This document shows positions 944-5,612 of a stretch of DNA of 5,962 bases, piece by piece. The DNA comes from a virus (Duplodnaviria; Heunggongvirae; Uroviricota; Caudoviricetes): positions 1-5,962 of IMG/VR virus record IMGVR_UViG_2579778952_000007; one strand, given 5' to 3'. Within the stretch, counting starts at the first letter, position 1; the number at the start of each line of letters is the position of its first letter. Made by a program: the position numbers and the translations under genes. The notes beneath the pieces were generated by a model, which was not told the DNA's origin, searched no databases, and was given only the letters and a program-made list of their open reading frames with translations.

Positions 944-971
944 TTGCAGGGAAATCTTAGTTAAGTAGAAT
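944..971 (+). promoter_or_regulatory. Candidate sigma70 promoter of the hok transcript: TTGCAG, 16-bp spacer, TAGAAT
   Basis: -35 TTGCAG at 944-949 and -10 TAGAAT at 966-971. The predicted start near 975-980 coincides with the 5' arm of the long-range pairing with the mRNA 3' end, and gives the roughly 170-nt leader typical of hok-family mRNAs. Confidence 0.4.
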
Positions 972-1147
972 GACTGTGGGTGCTTGAGACTATCTGTCTC
1001 AGGCATGAACACCAAAAGGCAGATAGAGAAAAGCCCCAGTTAACATTACGCGTCCGGCAAGACGCTTAACATTAATCTGAGGCCATATCTATGCTCTACA
1101 CACGTAGGTTAGCCTCTTACGTGCCGAAAGGCAAGGAGAAGCAGGCT

Positions 1148-1303
1148 ATGAAGCAGCAAAAGGCGATGCTAATCGCCCTGATCGTCATCTGTTTAACCGT
1201 CATAGTGACGGCACTGGTAACGAGGAAAGACCTCTGCGAGGTACGAATCCGAACCGGCCAGACGGAGGTCGCTGTCTTCACAGCTTACGAACCTGAGGAG
1301 TAA
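1148..1303 (+). CDS. hokD: Hok/Gef family type I toxin, 51 aa, HokD(RelF)-like
   Basis: Translation MKQQKAMLIALIVICLTVIVTALVTRKDLCEVRIRTGQTEVAVFTAYEPEE has the Hok/Gef architecture: single N-terminal transmembrane helix, conserved LCE motif and periplasmic tail. It matches my recollection of E. coli HokD. AAGGAG at 1133-1138 lies 9 nt upstream of ATG 1148. The ORF track extends the frame to an in-frame ATG at 1091 (70 aa), which has its own GAGG. Confidence 0.88.
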   Translation: MKQQKAMLIALIVICLTVIVTALVTRKDLCEVRIRTGQTEVAVFTAYEPEE

Positions 1304-1373
1304 GAGACCGGGCGGGGGAGAAATCCCTCGCCGCCTCTGATGTGTCAGGCATCCTCAACGCACCCGCACTTAA

Positions 1374-1403
1374 CCCGCTTCGGCGGGTTTTTGTTTTTAT
1401 TTT
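1374..1403 (+). terminator. Rho-independent terminator of the hok transcript
   Basis: GC stem CCCGC (1374-1378) / GCGGG (1383-1387) with TTCG loop, followed by the T-run TTTTTGTTTTTATTTT (1388-1403). Confidence 0.7.
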
Positions 1404-2029: not shown

Positions 2030-3076
2030 GTGCGGGTATTACTTCGACCTGTTCTGGTACCGGAACTCGGGCTGGTGATCGTTAAGCCGGGCCGTGAATC
2101 CATGCCGGTATTCCACAATACCCGGGTACTGGTGGAGCCGGAACCGAAAAGCATGCGTAATCTGCCGTCCGGGGTCGTTCCTGCCGTTCGCCAGCCGCTG
2201 GCGGAGGATAAATCATTACTGCCATTTTTCAGCGACGAACGAGTGATTCGTGCTGCTGGTGGCGCTGGCGCATTGTCTGACTGGTTACTGCGCCATGTTA
2301 AATCCTGCCAGTGGCCACACGGCGATTATCACCACAGTGAAACCGTCATTCACCGTTATGGTACCGGCGCAATGGTGTTGTGCTGGCACTGCGACAACCA
2401 GCTGCGCGACCAGACCTCCGAATCACTCGGGCAACTTGCTCACCAAAACCTGTCTGCATGGATGATTGACGTCATACGCCATGCAATGAATGGCTCGCAG
2501 GAACGGGAATTATCGCTGGCTGAATTATCCTGGTGGGCGGTCCGCAATCAGGTGGCGGACGCGCTACCGGAAGCGGTATTACGTCGTTCGCTGGGGTTGC
2601 GTGCGGAAAAAATCCGCTCAATGTACCGTGAAAGCGACATCGTACCGGGAGAGCAGACCGCCACCAGCATACTGAAGCAGCGCACAAAAAATCTTGCGCC
2701 GCTGCCTCCCCCCCACCAGCAAACCCCGCCACAGGAAGAGACGGTGGTCAGCATTGCCGTTGATCCTGAGTCTCCGGAATCTTTCATGAAACGACCTAAA
2801 CGTCGCCGCTGGGTTAACGAGAAATACACACGCTGGGTGAAGACACAGCCGTGTGCGTGTTGTGGTAAGCCAGCCGACGATCCCCATCACCTGATTGGTC
2901 ATGGTCAGGGCGGAATGGGGACAAAATCTCACGATATTTTCACGCTACCGCTGTGTCGGGAGCATCACAACGAGCTTCATGCGGATCCTCTGGCGTTCGA
3001 AGAAAAGCATGGTTCTCAGGTTGATTTAATTTTTCGTTTTCTTGATCACGCCTTTGCAACTGGCGTGCTTGGGTAA
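2030..3076 (+). CDS. ydfU: DUF968 / YdfU-like prophage protein, 348 aa, with a C-terminal HNH-like Cys/His motif
   Basis: GTG start at 2030 with GGAGG at 2021-2025. Long uninterrupted frame. The C-terminus CACCGKPADDPHHLIGHGQ...LCREHHNELHADP has a CxxC...HH...CxxHH arrangement typical of HNH/zinc-ribbon nucleases. A second Cys/His cluster (CQWPHGDYHH...CWHCDN) lies in the N-terminal third. Size and gene neighbourhood (hok upstream, Q-family antiterminator downstream) resemble the ydfU position in the E. coli Qin prophage as I recall it. Confidence 0.8.
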   Translation: MRVLLRPVLVPELGLVIVKPGRESMPVFHNTRVLVEPEPKSMRNLPSGVVPAVRQPLAEDKSLLPFFSDERVIRAAGGAGALSDWLLRHVKSCQWPHGDYHHSETVIHRYGTGAMVLCWHCDNQLRDQTSESLGQLAHQNLSAWMIDVIRHAMNGSQERELSLAELSWWAVRNQVADALPEAVLRRSLGLRAEKIRSMYRESDIVPGEQTATSILKQRTKNLAPLPPPHQQTPPQEETVVSIAVDPESPESFMKRPKRRRWVNEKYTRWVKTQPCACCGKPADDPHHLIGHGQGGMGTKSHDIFTLPLCREHHNELHADPLAFEEKHGSQVDLIFRFLDHAFATGVLG

Positions 3077-3088
3077 AAGAGGTGACTG

Positions 3089-3463
3089 ATGCTCATAGAT
3101 TTGGTTTTACCTTACCCGCCGACGGTGAACACTTACTGGCGACGCCGTGGCAGCACATATTTTATCTCGGAGGAGGGAAAGCGTTATCGCCGGGCTGTGG
3201 CGCTTATTGTTCGCCAGCAGCGGCTGAAATTAAGCCTGTCCGGAAGGCTGGCGATAAAGGTGATTGCAGAGCCACCGGATAAGCGTCGTCGCGACCTGGA
3301 CAATATCCTGAAAGCACCGCTGGATGCGCTGACGCATGCGGGAGTGTTAATGGACGATGAGCAGTTTGATGAAATCAATATCGTTCGTGGTCAGCCAGTA
3401 TCTGGTGGACGTATGGGGGTGAAGATTTACCCCATAATGCATGAAGAGCAGGTCAAAAAATGA
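3089..3463 (+). CDS. rusA: RusA-family crossover junction endodeoxyribonuclease (Holliday junction resolvase), 124 aa
   Basis: AGAGG at 3078-3082 is 6 nt before ATG 3089. The product carries the RusA signature: N-terminal LPYPPTVNTYWRRRG and the catalytic-region block KRRRDLDNILKAPLDALTHAGVLMDDEQ, comparable to [22 protein letters not shown] in E. coli RusA. The stop TGA 3461-3463 overlaps the next ATG (ATGA). Confidence 0.85.
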   Translation: MLIDLVLPYPPTVNTYWRRRGSTYFISEEGKRYRRAVALIVRQQRLKLSLSGRLAIKVIAEPPDKRRRDLDNILKAPLDALTHAGVLMDDEQFDEINIVRGQPVSGGRMGVKIYPIMHEEQVKK

Positions 3464-4281
3464 AACTGGAAGATTTACCGAAATACTACTCCCCAAAATC
3501 CCCTGGCCTGACCGATGCATCGGCCTCAACGTCAAAAGATGCGCTGAGTATCACTGATGTGATGGCCGCGCAGGGCATGACACAGAATCGGGCTGAGATG
3601 GGGTTTTCTGCGTTCCTGGGGAAAATGGGCATCAGTATGAATGACAGGGCGCGGGCAACAGAATTACTGGCAGATTATGCACTCAGTCGGTGCGATCGTG
3701 TGGCGGCGTTGAGAAAACTTCCGGCAGAAATAAAACCGGTAGTGATGCGCATTATGGCTTCGTATGCGTTTGAAGATTATGCCCGTAGCGCGGCGAGCAA
3801 AAAACAGTGCCCCTGCTGTCACGGAAAAAAATTTATTGAAAGCGAGGTTTTTACAAACAAGATCCAGTATCCGGATGGTAAGCCACCAGTGTGGGCAAAG
3901 TGCACAAAAGGCGTGTACCCGTCTTACTGGGAAGAATGGAAAAAAGTCAGGGAGGTGGTAAAAGTTGCCTGTCCGGAGTGTGGCGGAAAGGGTGAGGTTT
4001 CCACCGCCTGTAAGGATTGCCGTGGGCGTGGTGTCGCCATTCATCGTGAAGAGTCGGTAAAACGTGGTATGCCTGTTATCAGAGATTGCCAGCGTTGTGG
4101 TGGTCGTGGCTATGAAAGACTACCATCAACGGAGGCATTTAATGCCATACGCAAAGTGACGAGTGCTATCACGCTTGATACGTGGAAAAAATCAGTGAAA
4201 CGCTTTTACGATACGTTGGTGGTTCGGTTTGACATTGAAGAGGCATGGGCGGAGCGGCAGTTAAAGAGGGTAACGCGATAG
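3460..4281 (+). CDS. Late-gene antitermination protein Q family (long 82/Qin-type), 273 aa, with four CxxCxGxG zinc-finger repeats
   Basis: Positioned immediately after rusA and before a promoter-terminator pair, as Q is in lambdoid phages. The product contains CPCCHGKKF, CPECGGKGEV, CKDCRGRGV and CQRCGGRGY. Family assignment rests on synteny and recollection of long Q proteins, not on an alignment. Confidence 0.65.
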   Translation: MKLEDLPKYYSPKSPGLTDASASTSKDALSITDVMAAQGMTQNRAEMGFSAFLGKMGISMNDRARATELLADYALSRCDRVAALRKLPAEIKPVVMRIMASYAFEDYARSAASKKQCPCCHGKKFIESEVFTNKIQYPDGKPPVWAKCTKGVYPSYWEEWKKVREVVKVACPECGGKGEVSTACKDCRGRGVAIHREESVKRGMPVIRDCQRCGGRGYERLPSTEAFNAIRKVTSAITLDTWKKSVKRFYDTLVVRFDIEEAWAERQLKRVTR

Positions 4282-5362: not shown

Positions 5363-5438
5363 GGCCCTTTAGCTCAGTGGTGAGAGCGAGCGACTCATAA
5401 TCGCCAGGTCGCTGGTTCAAATCCAGCAAGGGCCACCA
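5363..5438 (+). tRNA. ileZ: tRNA-Ile2 (anticodon CAT, ileX/ileZ-like lysidine tRNA); tRNA-Met not excluded
   Basis: 76 nt with full cloverleaf: acceptor GGCCCTT / AAGGGCC, D-arm TAGCTCAGTGGTGAGAGC, anticodon loop CTCATAA (CAT at 5396-5398), T-arm GGTTCAAATCC, discriminator A and encoded CCA. Closely resembles E. coli ileX as I recall it. Confidence 0.85.
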
Positions 5439-5535: not shown

Positions 5536-5612
5536 GCGTTGTTAGCTCAGCCGGACAGAGCAATTGCCTTCTAAGCAATCGGTCACTGGTTCGAATCCAG
5601 TACAACGCGCCA
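5536..5612 (+). tRNA. argN: tRNA-Arg (anticodon TCT, argU/argN-like; reads AGA/AGG)
   Basis: 77 nt: acceptor GCGTTGT / ACAACGC, D-arm TAGCTCAGCCGGACAGAGC, anticodon stem ATTGC / GCAAT with loop CTTCTAA (TCT), T-arm GGTTCGAATCC, discriminator G and encoded CCA (5610-5612). Confidence 0.85.

Follow-up and report, generated by a model that had tools for sequence, protein, structure and literature searches.

The window analysed here (the whole stretch of viral DNA under study, 5,962 nucleotides in length) contains at positions 943-1397 what can be taken, with a probability of roughly 0.9, to be a complete and autonomous type I hok/sok toxin-antitoxin cassette of the hokD/hokW-sokW lineage; its carrier is a Qin-like lambdoid prophage of E. 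coli, in whose nin/Q region it is located. The RNA pairings at the locus are real, yet what they amount to is the textbook regulatory fold of the hok/sok family, and the finding is in that sense an ordinary one: neither the locus nor its toxin, antisense RNA or refolding mRNA is new, all of them having been annotated and studied experimentally in near-identical copies. As a discovery, textbook material of this kind carries little weight. What the locus does provide is a clean positive control, in that the tac/fbi fold-back, the metastable hairpin and mok were all picked out correctly from the raw sequence by a first-pass annotation made without tools, while the present analysis yields a co-ordinate-resolved map of all the regulatory elements of an intact hokD-type locus, of which K-12 retains the 3' half only.

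Setting of the locus

RefSeq annotates this exact sequence as hokD, and similar DNA was found by megablast in 4722 of 5426 complete E. coli genomes. The hok gene shares its strand with every early-right and late gene of the prophage and has its place between the replication genes and Q, and the cassette as such occurs in many contexts, IncY plasmid-prophages included. There is no relBE within the window, as had been remarked at the first pass; this absence is not odd, because the relBE-hokD arrangement of K-12 is itself a derived, leader-less form. It may be mentioned in passing that RefSeq marks only the hok CDS here, with mok, Sok and the RNA elements left unannotated.

The toxin gene and the mok frame

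The hok toxin gene occupies positions 1148-1303 of the plus strand and encodes a protein of 51 amino acids with one transmembrane stretch and two conserved cysteines, Cys15 and Cys30, both of which are invariant in the Hok alignment. The protein matches Pfam family PF01848 (HOK_GEF) with E = 1.2e-23 over profile positions 1-42 of 42, as well as PHROG 251, “MokW-like host killing”, at 2.8e-33, and it is identical to HokD of E. coli K-12 (RefSeq hokD, WP_000813254.1). Overexpression of RelF/HokD with this same sequence is toxic. Together with the Rfam score of the leader (116 bits, see below), the Pfam match bears out the first-pass view that the locus is an intact one of the hok type. The Shine-Dalgarno sequence of hok, GGAG at 1135-1138 (plus strand), stands 9 nt ahead of the ATG and is invariant in the alignments; it also marks the point at which the homology with K-12 hokD starts.

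An upstream ATG at 1091, in frame with hok and with a GAGG of its own, had been proposed as a mok-like start, and this proposal has held up well. The GAGG (1079-1082, plus strand) lies 8 nt upstream of the ATG (1091-1093), both align with the annotated mokW of phage 933W, and Shine-Dalgarno and start codon alike are kept in 55 of 55 relatives, so that ATG 1091 is, judged on sequence, the mok start. The mok reading frame in the ORF list (1091-1303, plus strand) is 70 codons long, shares the frame of the hok ATG (1148) and specifies an N-terminally extended Hok; coupling of its translation to that of hok is predicted. The idea that an in-frame mok might be unusual had to be rejected, as this is the commonest state among the 55 loci, seen in 34 of them, against 16 in which mok is in the +1 frame and five with a stop just past the hok AUG.

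Promoter, transcript ends and terminator

A consensus scan places a putative hok promoter at 943-971 of the plus strand, made up of a -35 element TTTGCA (943-948), a 17-nt spacer and a -10 element TAGAAT (966-971), the last of these being spaced identically from the conserved GGG at the 5' end throughout the aligned relatives. Transcription most likely starts at G978, because this residue follows the -10 element after 6 nt, with the same spacing in all relatives, and because the Rfam match begins there. The probable 5' end of the mRNA so placed by homology, GGGUGCUUGAG (978-988, plus strand), carries the tac element. Comparison with the Rfam hok and Sok models, one of the checks proposed at the first pass, gives a clear match: the leader (978-1153, plus strand) fits the sok/hok-leader model RF01794, which begins at this same point, over its full length (model positions 1-157) with 116 bits against a gathering score of 59, while nhmmer gave 1.7e-56 for the leader profile.

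At the other end of the transcription unit, a terminator scan shows an intrinsic terminator at 1372-1397 (plus strand), in which a stem (1372-1378/1383-1389) is followed by a T run, with a probability of 0.95-0.98. A likeness to isrK (RF01394) over positions 1312-1393 was considered and rejected, its score being 25.3 bits against a gathering score of 50 and the resemblance extending to hairpin and terminator only; in the literature, IsrK is given a different origin (PMC8825220).

The tac/fbi fold-back

In the DNA, positions 975-988 (TGTGGGTGCTTGAG) are complementary to 1354-1368 (CTCAACGCACCCGCA) over 14 positions, with C1359 bulged and a G-U pair at T977:G1366. The first-pass annotation had described this as a 14-bp pairing between the 5' and 3' parts of the mRNA, and here the complementarity, the bulged C and the fold-back itself have proved real; it is the length that needs correction. 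Only 11 of the 14 pairs are to be expected in the RNA, because the transcript most likely starts at G978: positions 975-977 lie upstream of this homology-based start, and the extension pairs 975-977/1366-1368 show no conservation outside the hokD/hokW clade. The helix that is left joins 978-988 to 1354-1365 by 11 bp around the bulged C1359, with a probability of about 1.0, and its 3' partner is the fbi element CUCAA-C-GCACCC (1354-1365, plus strand), which is complementary to tac and is assigned from fold probability and comparative data together.

Thermodynamic folding, another of the checks proposed, yields a stable pairing of the two ends: the minimum free energy (MFE) fold of 975-1393 includes the tac/fbi helix (z = -7.4 relative to shuffles), with mean base-pair probabilities of 0.96-1.00 in the full-length fold. 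The first 12 nt of the transcript pair with the 170 nt past the stop codon at -19.2 kcal/mol, compared with -12.2 +/- 1.9 kcal/mol for dinucleotide shuffles, three of 2000 of which reach the observed value. Further evidence comes from the relatives. Given 55 related loci, RNAalifold predicts the helix de novo, U-A and C-G pairs covarying in it, and the pair U981:A1362 appears across them as UA 30 times, CG 21 times and UG three times, with a single break; the pairing is kept at 89.5%, whereas in control alignments with the partner slid by 1-3 columns it falls to 43-54%. In 57 of 63 distinct loci the best tac-complementary site falls 40-70 nt past the stop codon, and in one lineage (L060) tac, fbi and ucb have all changed together. 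Comparison of duplex energies as a test of covariation was uninformative, as cognate and non-cognate tac/fbi duplexes barely differ (-19.8 vs -17.1 kcal/mol) because tac is nearly invariant and G-U pairing tolerates the U/C change; column-wise counts of pairs were therefore used instead.

The notion that the complementarity is a chance match, or a GC-rich by-product of proximity to the terminator with no regulatory meaning, could appeal to the mere 11 bp within the likely transcript, to the three shuffled 3' regions that equal the duplex energy and to the unconserved extension, but it is refuted by these comparative data, namely the constant place of the best site, the unprompted recovery of the helix, the exchanges at U981:A1362 and the halving of pairing on sliding the columns, and it can be given practically no credence.

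Alternative pairings of the leader and the 3' hairpin

Besides its pairing with fbi, tac can take part in two further pairings, and the three are mutually exclusive. The first of these is the 5' metastable hairpin at 983-1003 (plus strand), formed by 983-990 and 996-1003 and predicted to sequester tac in the nascent transcript. Folding of 978-1003 gives -10.5 kcal/mol with 91% of the ensemble in this hairpin; among the relatives 94.1% of cells are paired and 5 of 8 pairs show compensatory changes, a result reached by none of 500 shuffles. A hairpin had been noticed here at the first pass, at 985-1000; its arms, TGAGAC (985-990) and GTCTCA, are real enough, though the second arm runs from 996 to 1001, so that the span as originally given was one base short. 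Mutually exclusive with the metastable hairpin is a stable leader stem of the full-length mRNA, 990-1026 (plus strand), in which 990-999 pair with 1017-1026 with a probability of 0.98. It too emerges de novo from RNAalifold, one of its pairs occurring as AU 30, UA 16, GU 6 and GC 2. This stem contains the competing complementarity CTATCTG/CAGATAG of the first pass, which is real and does covary; CTATCTG, which pairs with 1020-1026, is located at 990-996 rather than at 989-995.

The remaining partner of tac is the ucb or anti-Shine-Dalgarno box, AAGCCCCAG (1031-1039, plus strand), which is predicted to pair with the mok Shine-Dalgarno in the full-length mRNA or, once the 3' end has been trimmed, with tac. 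The former arrangement has a probability of 0.99 in the fold of the full-length RNA and consists of GCC 1033-1035 with GGC 1081-1083 and CAG 1037-1039 with CUG 1077-1079. The tac/ucb alternative, with a duplex energy of -10.7 kcal/mol, is kept in 98.5% of cells across the 55 loci. The predicted folds of 3'-truncated RNAs do not contain an “open” form with tac paired to ucb, and forcing it costs 4.8-6.1 kcal/mol over the MFE; in RNAs ending at 1338-1353 the MFE structure has tac either in its local hairpin or in a weak pairing of 979-987 with 1345-1353 (probability 0.22). Thermodynamic prediction of the open conformation was accordingly abandoned, and the case for the activation step is made instead from homology and from conservation of the pairing.

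Further downstream, a hairpin in the 3'UTR (1311-1332, plus strand; 1311-1319/1324-1332) has a probability of 0.98 and shows compensatory changes at 6 of 9 pairs among the 55 loci; by analogy with plasmid R1 (PMC9841398), it is likely to serve as the stem protecting the 3' end of the trimmed mRNA.

The Sok antisense RNA

The first-pass annotation had left the antisense partner of hok unresolved, but a candidate with its own promoter emerges when the minus strand is searched, as had been suggested at that stage. It runs from 1099 to 1029 on the minus strand and would be an RNA of 71 nt, with a 15-nt single-stranded 5' tail, a long stem-loop and the end GGGGCUUUU; the predicted fold (-28.6 kcal/mol, z = -5.4) thus has the canonical tail and stem-loop. 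In the alignment this candidate is the positional homologue of the sokW misc_RNA of AF125520 (933W), to which it corresponds. The placement was made from the 933W annotation, the promoter and the fold; a match to the Rfam “sok” entry is of no use for the purpose, as that model is in the hok-sense orientation.

The putative Sok promoter (1106-1134, minus strand), read directly from the DNA, consists of TTGCCT (-35, 1134-1129), a 17-nt spacer and TAACCT (-10, 1111-1106). It is convergent with the direction of hok and the early genes, scores too low to be picked up by the consensus scan (its -10 element being a weak match to consensus), and is identical in sequence to the 933W copy. In Sp5, sokW RNA has been detected and is antitoxic, and the promoter whose -10 region was mutated there to abolish antitoxin activity (primer YO-421) is identical to the present one (PMC8621323).

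Proposed mechanism

The mechanism proposed for the present locus is drawn by homology with hok/sok of plasmid R1 and hokW-sokW of Sp5. The analysis shows the ORF, each of the sequence elements, the mutually exclusive pairings open to tac with their conservation or covariation, and the homology; from these we infer the transcript ends, the 3' processing, the expression of Sok, and for this particular copy both its toxicity and the part it plays in biology. The constitutive promoter at 943-971 would give rise to a hok mRNA of roughly 420 nt starting at about G978, in which, during synthesis, the 5' tac would be kept in the local hairpin 983-1003. In the finished RNA tac (978-988) would pair with fbi (1354-1365), the leader stem 990-999/1017-1026 would form, and the anti-Shine-Dalgarno box (1033-1039) would mask the mok Shine-Dalgarno (1079-1082), leaving a full-length RNA that should be stable, untranslated and unbound by Sok. 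Slow 3' trimming would then remove terminator and fbi, allowing tac to re-pair with the anti-Shine-Dalgarno box; the mok Shine-Dalgarno would open, and ribosomes initiating at mok (1091) would read into hok (1148). For as long as it is supplied, the unstable 71-nt Sok RNA, which is complementary to the region of the mok start, would pair with that part of the trimmed mRNA and the duplex would be destroyed by RNase III, but once that supply ends, whether by loss or by induction of the prophage, the 51-aa Hok would be made and the inner membrane damaged. For R1 itself, earlier work has shown that exonucleolytic processing from the 3' end leaves a truncated mRNA which can be translated, that RNase III cleaves the duplex of hok and Sok, and that the RNAs differ in stability; the publication that summarises this work also summarises the tac/fbi/ucb/dcb model and re-tests it by mutagenesis (PMC9841398).

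Possible roles of the cassette

If the cassette is functional, its main role in this co-oriented position inside the delayed-early (replication-nin-Q) operon might lie in prophage induction rather than in maintenance, with read-through from the early promoter running into the convergent Sok promoter and lowering Sok, Hok aiding lysis, and the hok terminator doubling as a nin-region terminator upstream of Q. This seems unlikely, although several observations are in keeping with it: hok points the same way as the early-right and late genes, with the replication genes to one side of it and Q to the other, the Sok promoter is convergent with their transcription, and in Sp5, after mitomycin C and in a RecA-dependent manner, sokW RNA vanishes and HokW appears, while phage release falls by half when the locus is deleted (PMC8621323). 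Against this, the argument for the present locus is one of gene order alone, the Sp5/933W locus lies elsewhere and runs opposite to its neighbours, so that read-through is not needed for the effect measured there, and the cassette has its own promoter and terminator and is found in many contexts, including IncY plasmid-prophages. Distinctly doubtful, too, is the specific proposal that read-through at induction silences the convergent Sok promoter, so timing Hok to the lytic cycle, and that the hok terminator gates expression of Q. Were it true, this would be a toxin-antitoxin cassette wired into the transcription programme of the phage, and not solely an autonomous addiction module.

Less likely still is that the locus, though intact in sequence, is a silent or decaying relic with no current function, as are most hok copies of K-12. 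Chromosomal hok loci do decay: K-12 hokD has lost its entire leader, one of the relatives examined here (L006) is frameshifted, and another (L010) has had its 3' end cut off by IS421. At the present locus, however, every element is in place and undisrupted (promoter, tac, hairpins, ucb, mok Shine-Dalgarno and ATG, Sok promoter and body, hok Shine-Dalgarno and ORF, fbi, and terminator), the covariation of paired positions across genera implies that the fold is under selection, the protein has the same sequence as K-12 HokD, and the 92%-identical hokW-sokW is functional (PMC8621323). The reading preferred here is that of a complete, autonomous hok/sok cassette.

Comparison with known systems

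One of the closest known systems is hokW-sokW, with mokW, of the Stx2 phages 933W and Sp5 (AF125520); the 933W/VT2-Sakai copies share 91.6% DNA identity with the present locus. The 5' end, hairpins, ucb, in-frame mok Shine-Dalgarno and ATG, Sok promoter and stem-loop, hok Shine-Dalgarno and fbi are the same in 933W, and in both cases a Hok of 51 amino acids is encoded on a lambdoid prophage. HokW is toxic and membrane-localised, and the antitoxic action of sokW requires both RNase III and Hfq (Takada et al. 2021, PMC8621323). Hok and HokW, 92% identical as proteins, differ at 4 of their last 7 residues, and 6 positions differ within the first 20 nt of Sok (the single-stranded recognition tail) and its matching target, so that cross-recognition between the two systems may be imperfect. 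Beyond fbi the 933W sequence is unrelated and, unlike the present one, has no adjacent hairpin terminator, and the 933W locus is at the far end of the genome rather than in the nin region.

Plasmid R1 hok/sok (parB), the founding member of the family, has the same tac/fbi, metastable hairpin, ucb/anti-Shine-Dalgarno, mok coupling and Sok (PMC9841398), and R1-like loci (L080, L082 and L008) can be aligned with the present one over the whole mRNA. The two Hok proteins, however, are only about 41% identical, tac is GGCGC in R1 but GGGUGC here (with fbi changed to match), the leader loop of R1 is roughly 20 nt longer, and R1-like loci have their mok in the +1 frame, against an in-frame mok here; moreover, the R1 locus is carried by a plasmid and the present one by a prophage. 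With hokC/mokC (gef) and other chromosomal hok loci of Escherichia the DNA identity along the mRNA is about 74%. Loci of this type have the same tac, position of fbi and in-frame mok, but their Sok-encoding stem-loop is shorter and different, and they belong to the core chromosome (next to dnaJ) rather than to a prophage.

Finally, hokD (relF) of the K-12 prophage Qin is nearly identical in DNA from the hok Shine-Dalgarno (about 1134) through fbi and the terminator and beyond, and its neighbourhood is the same, with DUF968/YdfU and a Q-like antiterminator downstream. It was reportedly described by Pedersen and Gerdes in 1999 as truncated by rearrangement. K-12 hokD is without promoter, tac, hairpins, ucb, mok start and Sok, and has relB-relE in their stead, whereas the window holds the complete form.

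Identity and setting of the locus

The 51-aa toxin reading frame hok (1148-1303, plus strand) encodes a protein identical to HokD of E. coli K-12; it matches Pfam HOK_GEF (E = 1.2e-23) and PHROG 251 ('MokW-like host killing'), and RefSeq labels the identical sequence hokD. What the first-pass annotation saw here is confirmed, and its interpretation of the locus as an intact hok-type system is supported. The system is of a canonical kind, previously annotated and experimentally characterised, and is in that sense already known; the copy in phage 933W (AF125520), which is 91.6% identical, has carried annotations for mokW, hokW and the antisense RNA sokW since deposition. Of 5426 complete E. coli genomes, 4722 have similar DNA according to megablast with a 551-nt query, and 2965 of these contain at least 80% of the query; a similar locus occurs in 79 phage records and on IncY plasmid-prophages, and the source genome itself has four hok-like places.

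Comparison with Rfam, suggested at the outset as a check, gave a match of 978-1153 (plus strand) to the whole of model RF01794, at 116 bits against a gathering score of 59. This family is named 'sok antitoxin (CssrC)', yet the match is to the hok-sense strand, and the family consensus starts at the 5' end of hok mRNA and stops at the hok Shine-Dalgarno (SD) sequence and AUG; given this orientation and span, the match indicates where the hok leader is, rather than on which strand Sok lies or how far it extends. There is also a sub-threshold match to isrK (RF01394; 25.3 bits against a gathering score of 50) at 1312-1393 (plus strand), covering the hok 3'UTR hairpin and terminator, but this is probably a generic two-hairpin resemblance, since IsrK derives from an ASH-domain gene (PMC8825220).

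The window is the nin/Q region of an Escherichia coli lambdoid prophage. The chromosomes of strains E400634 and E500002 match positions 900-1450 with 100% identity, and in E400634 the surrounding 24 kb comprise integrase, excisionase, exonuclease, dicB, ydfA-C, repressor-like and replication genes, then the window region, then holin and endolysin, and finally terminase and head genes, a gene order that identifies the prophage as Qin-like. Within the window, a hypothetical gene (75-497) lies upstream of the hok locus, while downstream come small phage ORFs, a DUF968 protein (2030-3076), RusA (3089-3463), a Q-type antiterminator (3460-4281, plus strand; Pfam Antiterm, 2e-50), which also resembles the DnaJ central CXXCXGXG zinc finger at a sub-threshold 30.5 bits (cut-off 32.7), and a membrane protein gene. 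Also on the plus strand and downstream of the Q-like gene are tRNA genes with anticodon CAT (5363-5438; Met according to ARAGORN, Ile according to RefSeq) and Arg-TCT (5536-5612), the same kind of pair as is found upstream of Stx phage toxin genes.

Two small plus-strand ORFs flank the locus. The first, at 709-888 (59 aa from ATG 709, or 72 aa from GTG 670), has two hydrophobic stretches and lies immediately 5' of the hok promoter; Pfam and PHROG searches gave no match, and it carries no annotation in the 100%-identical RefSeq record, but its DNA is present in 1568 of 5426 genomes, and other E. coli genomes list it as a 'hypothetical protein'. The second, of 57 aa (1523-1696; PHROG 340, unknown function), is preceded by a promoter-like TTGAAG-18-TAGAAT at 1412-1441, and the RefSeq annotation, an incomplete pseudogene, covers just its first 75 nt.

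Folding of the mRNA

A 14-bp pairing with one bulged C between 975-988 and 1354-1368 had been proposed, and the complementarity is real: it spans 14 positions, one of them a G-U pair, and leaves C1359 bulged. The minimum free energy fold of 975-1393 (-172.3 kcal/mol; z = -7.4 relative to dinucleotide shuffles) is closed by exactly this helix, and the pairs between tac, the 5' element at 978-988, and fbi, its 3' partner at 1354-1365 before the terminator, have mean partition-function probabilities of 0.96-1.00 whether the RNA starts at 975 or 978. The duplex between the first 12 nt and the 170 nt past the stop codon is worth -19.2 kcal/mol, as compared with -12.2 +/- 1.9 kcal/mol for shuffled 3' regions (observed value reached in 3 of 2000). 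However, probably only 11 of the 14 pairs fall inside the RNA, since the transcript most likely starts at G978, judging from the end (at 971) of a sigma-70-like promoter, TTTGCA-17-TAGAAT, from a GGG conserved 6 nt past the -10 hexamer in every relative, and from the start of the Rfam match at 978. The three extra pairs are conserved in the hokD/hokW clade, but not outside it.

The local hairpin that had been placed at 985-1000 is present, formed by TGAGAC (985-990) with GTCTCA (996-1001) and extendable to 983-990/996-1003; at -10.5 kcal/mol it makes up 91% of the ensemble for the first 26 nt. The complementarity thought to compete with it likewise exists, albeit one base away from its original placing: CTATCTG at 990-996 pairs with CAGATAG at 1020-1026 within a 10-bp leader stem (990-999/1017-1026) of probability 0.98 in the full-length fold. 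In the same fold the anti-SD box (1033-1039) lies on the SD sequence of mok, the overlapping upstream frame, with probability 0.99, alongside partial pairing of the hok SD and start.

The suggestion of a mok-like start at ATG 1091 also holds, in that a GAGG lies 8 nt before this codon, which shares its frame with the hok ATG at 1148, so that translation from 1091 would yield a 70-aa extended Hok. An SD and start reading across the hok start occur in 55/55 related loci; mok is in frame with hok in 34 of these and in the +1 frame in 16 (R1-like loci included), and stops just beyond the hok AUG in five, so an in-frame mok is not unusual.

Comparative evidence

When a Hok alignment was used to scan one genome per species, it yielded 79 loci (Escherichia, Shigella, Kluyvera, Photorhabdus, Pantoea, Sodalis, Buttiauxella, Leclercia and others), and a profile made from the leaders of nine loci detected the complete leader at 84 places. 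In 57 out of 63 distinct loci, the site most complementary to the first 12 nt falls 40-70 nt past the stop codon. Assemblies assigned to Veillonella, Acinetobacter, Xanthomonas, Ferruginibacter, Streptomyces and Oscillibacter also contain near-identical loci of E. coli or R1 type (L020, L030, L037, L080-L082); most of these sit on short contigs, and contamination or mis-binning of enterobacterial or plasmid DNA is the probable cause.

For 55 mRNAs, aligned from the inferred start to just beyond fbi, RNAalifold predicted the tac/fbi helix without any hint, and likewise the leader stem, one position of which appears as A-U, U-A, G-U and G-C. The pair equivalent to U981:A1362 is U-A in 30, C-G in 21, U-G in three and broken in one. 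Pairs were also counted for the structures read from the window. For the full-length set (tac/fbi, leader stem, anti-SD/SD and 3'UTR hairpin) 89.5% of cells are paired and 121 are changed on both sides, as against 43.5 +/- 6.6 in shuffles (reached by 0/500), while sliding the partner leaves 43-54% paired. The metastable hairpin has 94.1% paired, with 5/8 pairs compensatory (0/500 shuffles). The alternative helix of tac with ucb (the box at 1031-1039) has 98.5% paired (slid controls 25-66%) and is near-invariant, with one compensatory change. Position 981, the sole variable position of tac, is the mismatch of tac/ucb, and is therefore free to covary with fbi. In Enterobacillus tribolii (L060:356-714) U has become C at the tac position equivalent to 984, and both alternative partners, fbi (1358) and ucb (1032), have changed from A to G to match, a three-way compensatory change that fits the refolding model. 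These changes are the 'coupled covariations' already published for the hok mRNA family, reproduced here from an alignment that includes the window sequence.

The antisense RNA and the proposed switch

The antisense partner, Sok, which had been left open, can be placed by way of the 933W sokW feature, which maps to 1099 to 1029 on the minus strand. The putative promoter has its -35 (TTGCCT) at 1134-1129 and, after a 17-nt spacer, its -10 (TAACCT) at 1111-1106, 7 nt before G1099; it is identical to that of 933W, the sole nearby difference being at 1103, between -10 and start. A generic promoter scan missed it, the -10 being a weak match to consensus. The predicted fold of the 71-nt RNA (-28.6 kcal/mol; z = -5.4) leaves 15 nt single-stranded at the 5' end, followed by a long imperfect stem-loop and a U-rich 3' end, which is the canonical Sok shape.

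Element by element, the locus fits the hok switch model as summarised in PMC9841398. In the nascent RNA, tac would be trapped in the 5' hairpin; in the finished RNA, tac/fbi would close the molecule and the anti-SD box (1033-1039) would mask the mok SD. Trimming from the 3' end would then remove fbi, allowing tac to pair with ucb and freeing the mok SD. Binding of Sok would lead to destruction of the duplex by RNase III, whereas after Sok decay Mok and Hok would be translated. Energy alone did not reproduce the tac/ucb refolding for RNAs ending at 1338-1353, in which tac stays in the local hairpin and forced tac/ucb costs 4.8-6.1 kcal/mol. The final refolding, transcript ends, processing and toxicity of this particular copy are what we infer.

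Comparison with known loci

As regards K-12 hokD, near-identity of the relE-hokD region with the window runs from the hok SD (~1134) through the ORF, fbi and terminator and beyond, whereas the alignment shows no similarity 5' of ~1134, where K-12 has relB-relE. The two regions are otherwise syntenic, with DUF968/YdfU and the Q-like gene downstream in both. Since similarity ends at the hok SD with relB-relE upstream, K-12 hokD is a leader-less, rearranged form and the window has the complete one, which explains the lack of relBE neighbours remarked on earlier. Decayed copies exist elsewhere: one chromosomal locus (L006:460-626) has a frameshifting duplication inside hok, and one on an IncY plasmid (L010:715-960) has IS421 directly after the 3'UTR hairpin, with fbi and terminator gone.

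Another close relative is hokW-sokW of the Stx phages 933W and Sp5. In Sp5, both RNAs are detectable, HokW causes growth arrest, and sokW from its own promoter blocks this; protection is lost on mutating the sokW -10, is partly regained with sokW in trans, and depends partially on RNase III and Hfq (Takada et al., PMC8621323). After mitomycin C, sokW is lost and HokW is found in the inner membrane, in a RecA-dependent manner, and deletion of the locus halves phage release (PMC8621323). The Sok stem-loop is identical in hokW-sokW and the window, but six positions differ within the first 20 nt of Sok and its target, which may limit cross-neutralisation between co-resident copies. In 933W the sequence past fbi is unrelated and lacks an adjacent terminator hairpin, and the locus is found towards the far end of the phage genome; in the window, by contrast, it is co-directional within the early-right operon, upstream of Q, a position that would allow coupling to induction via read-through against the convergent Sok promoter.
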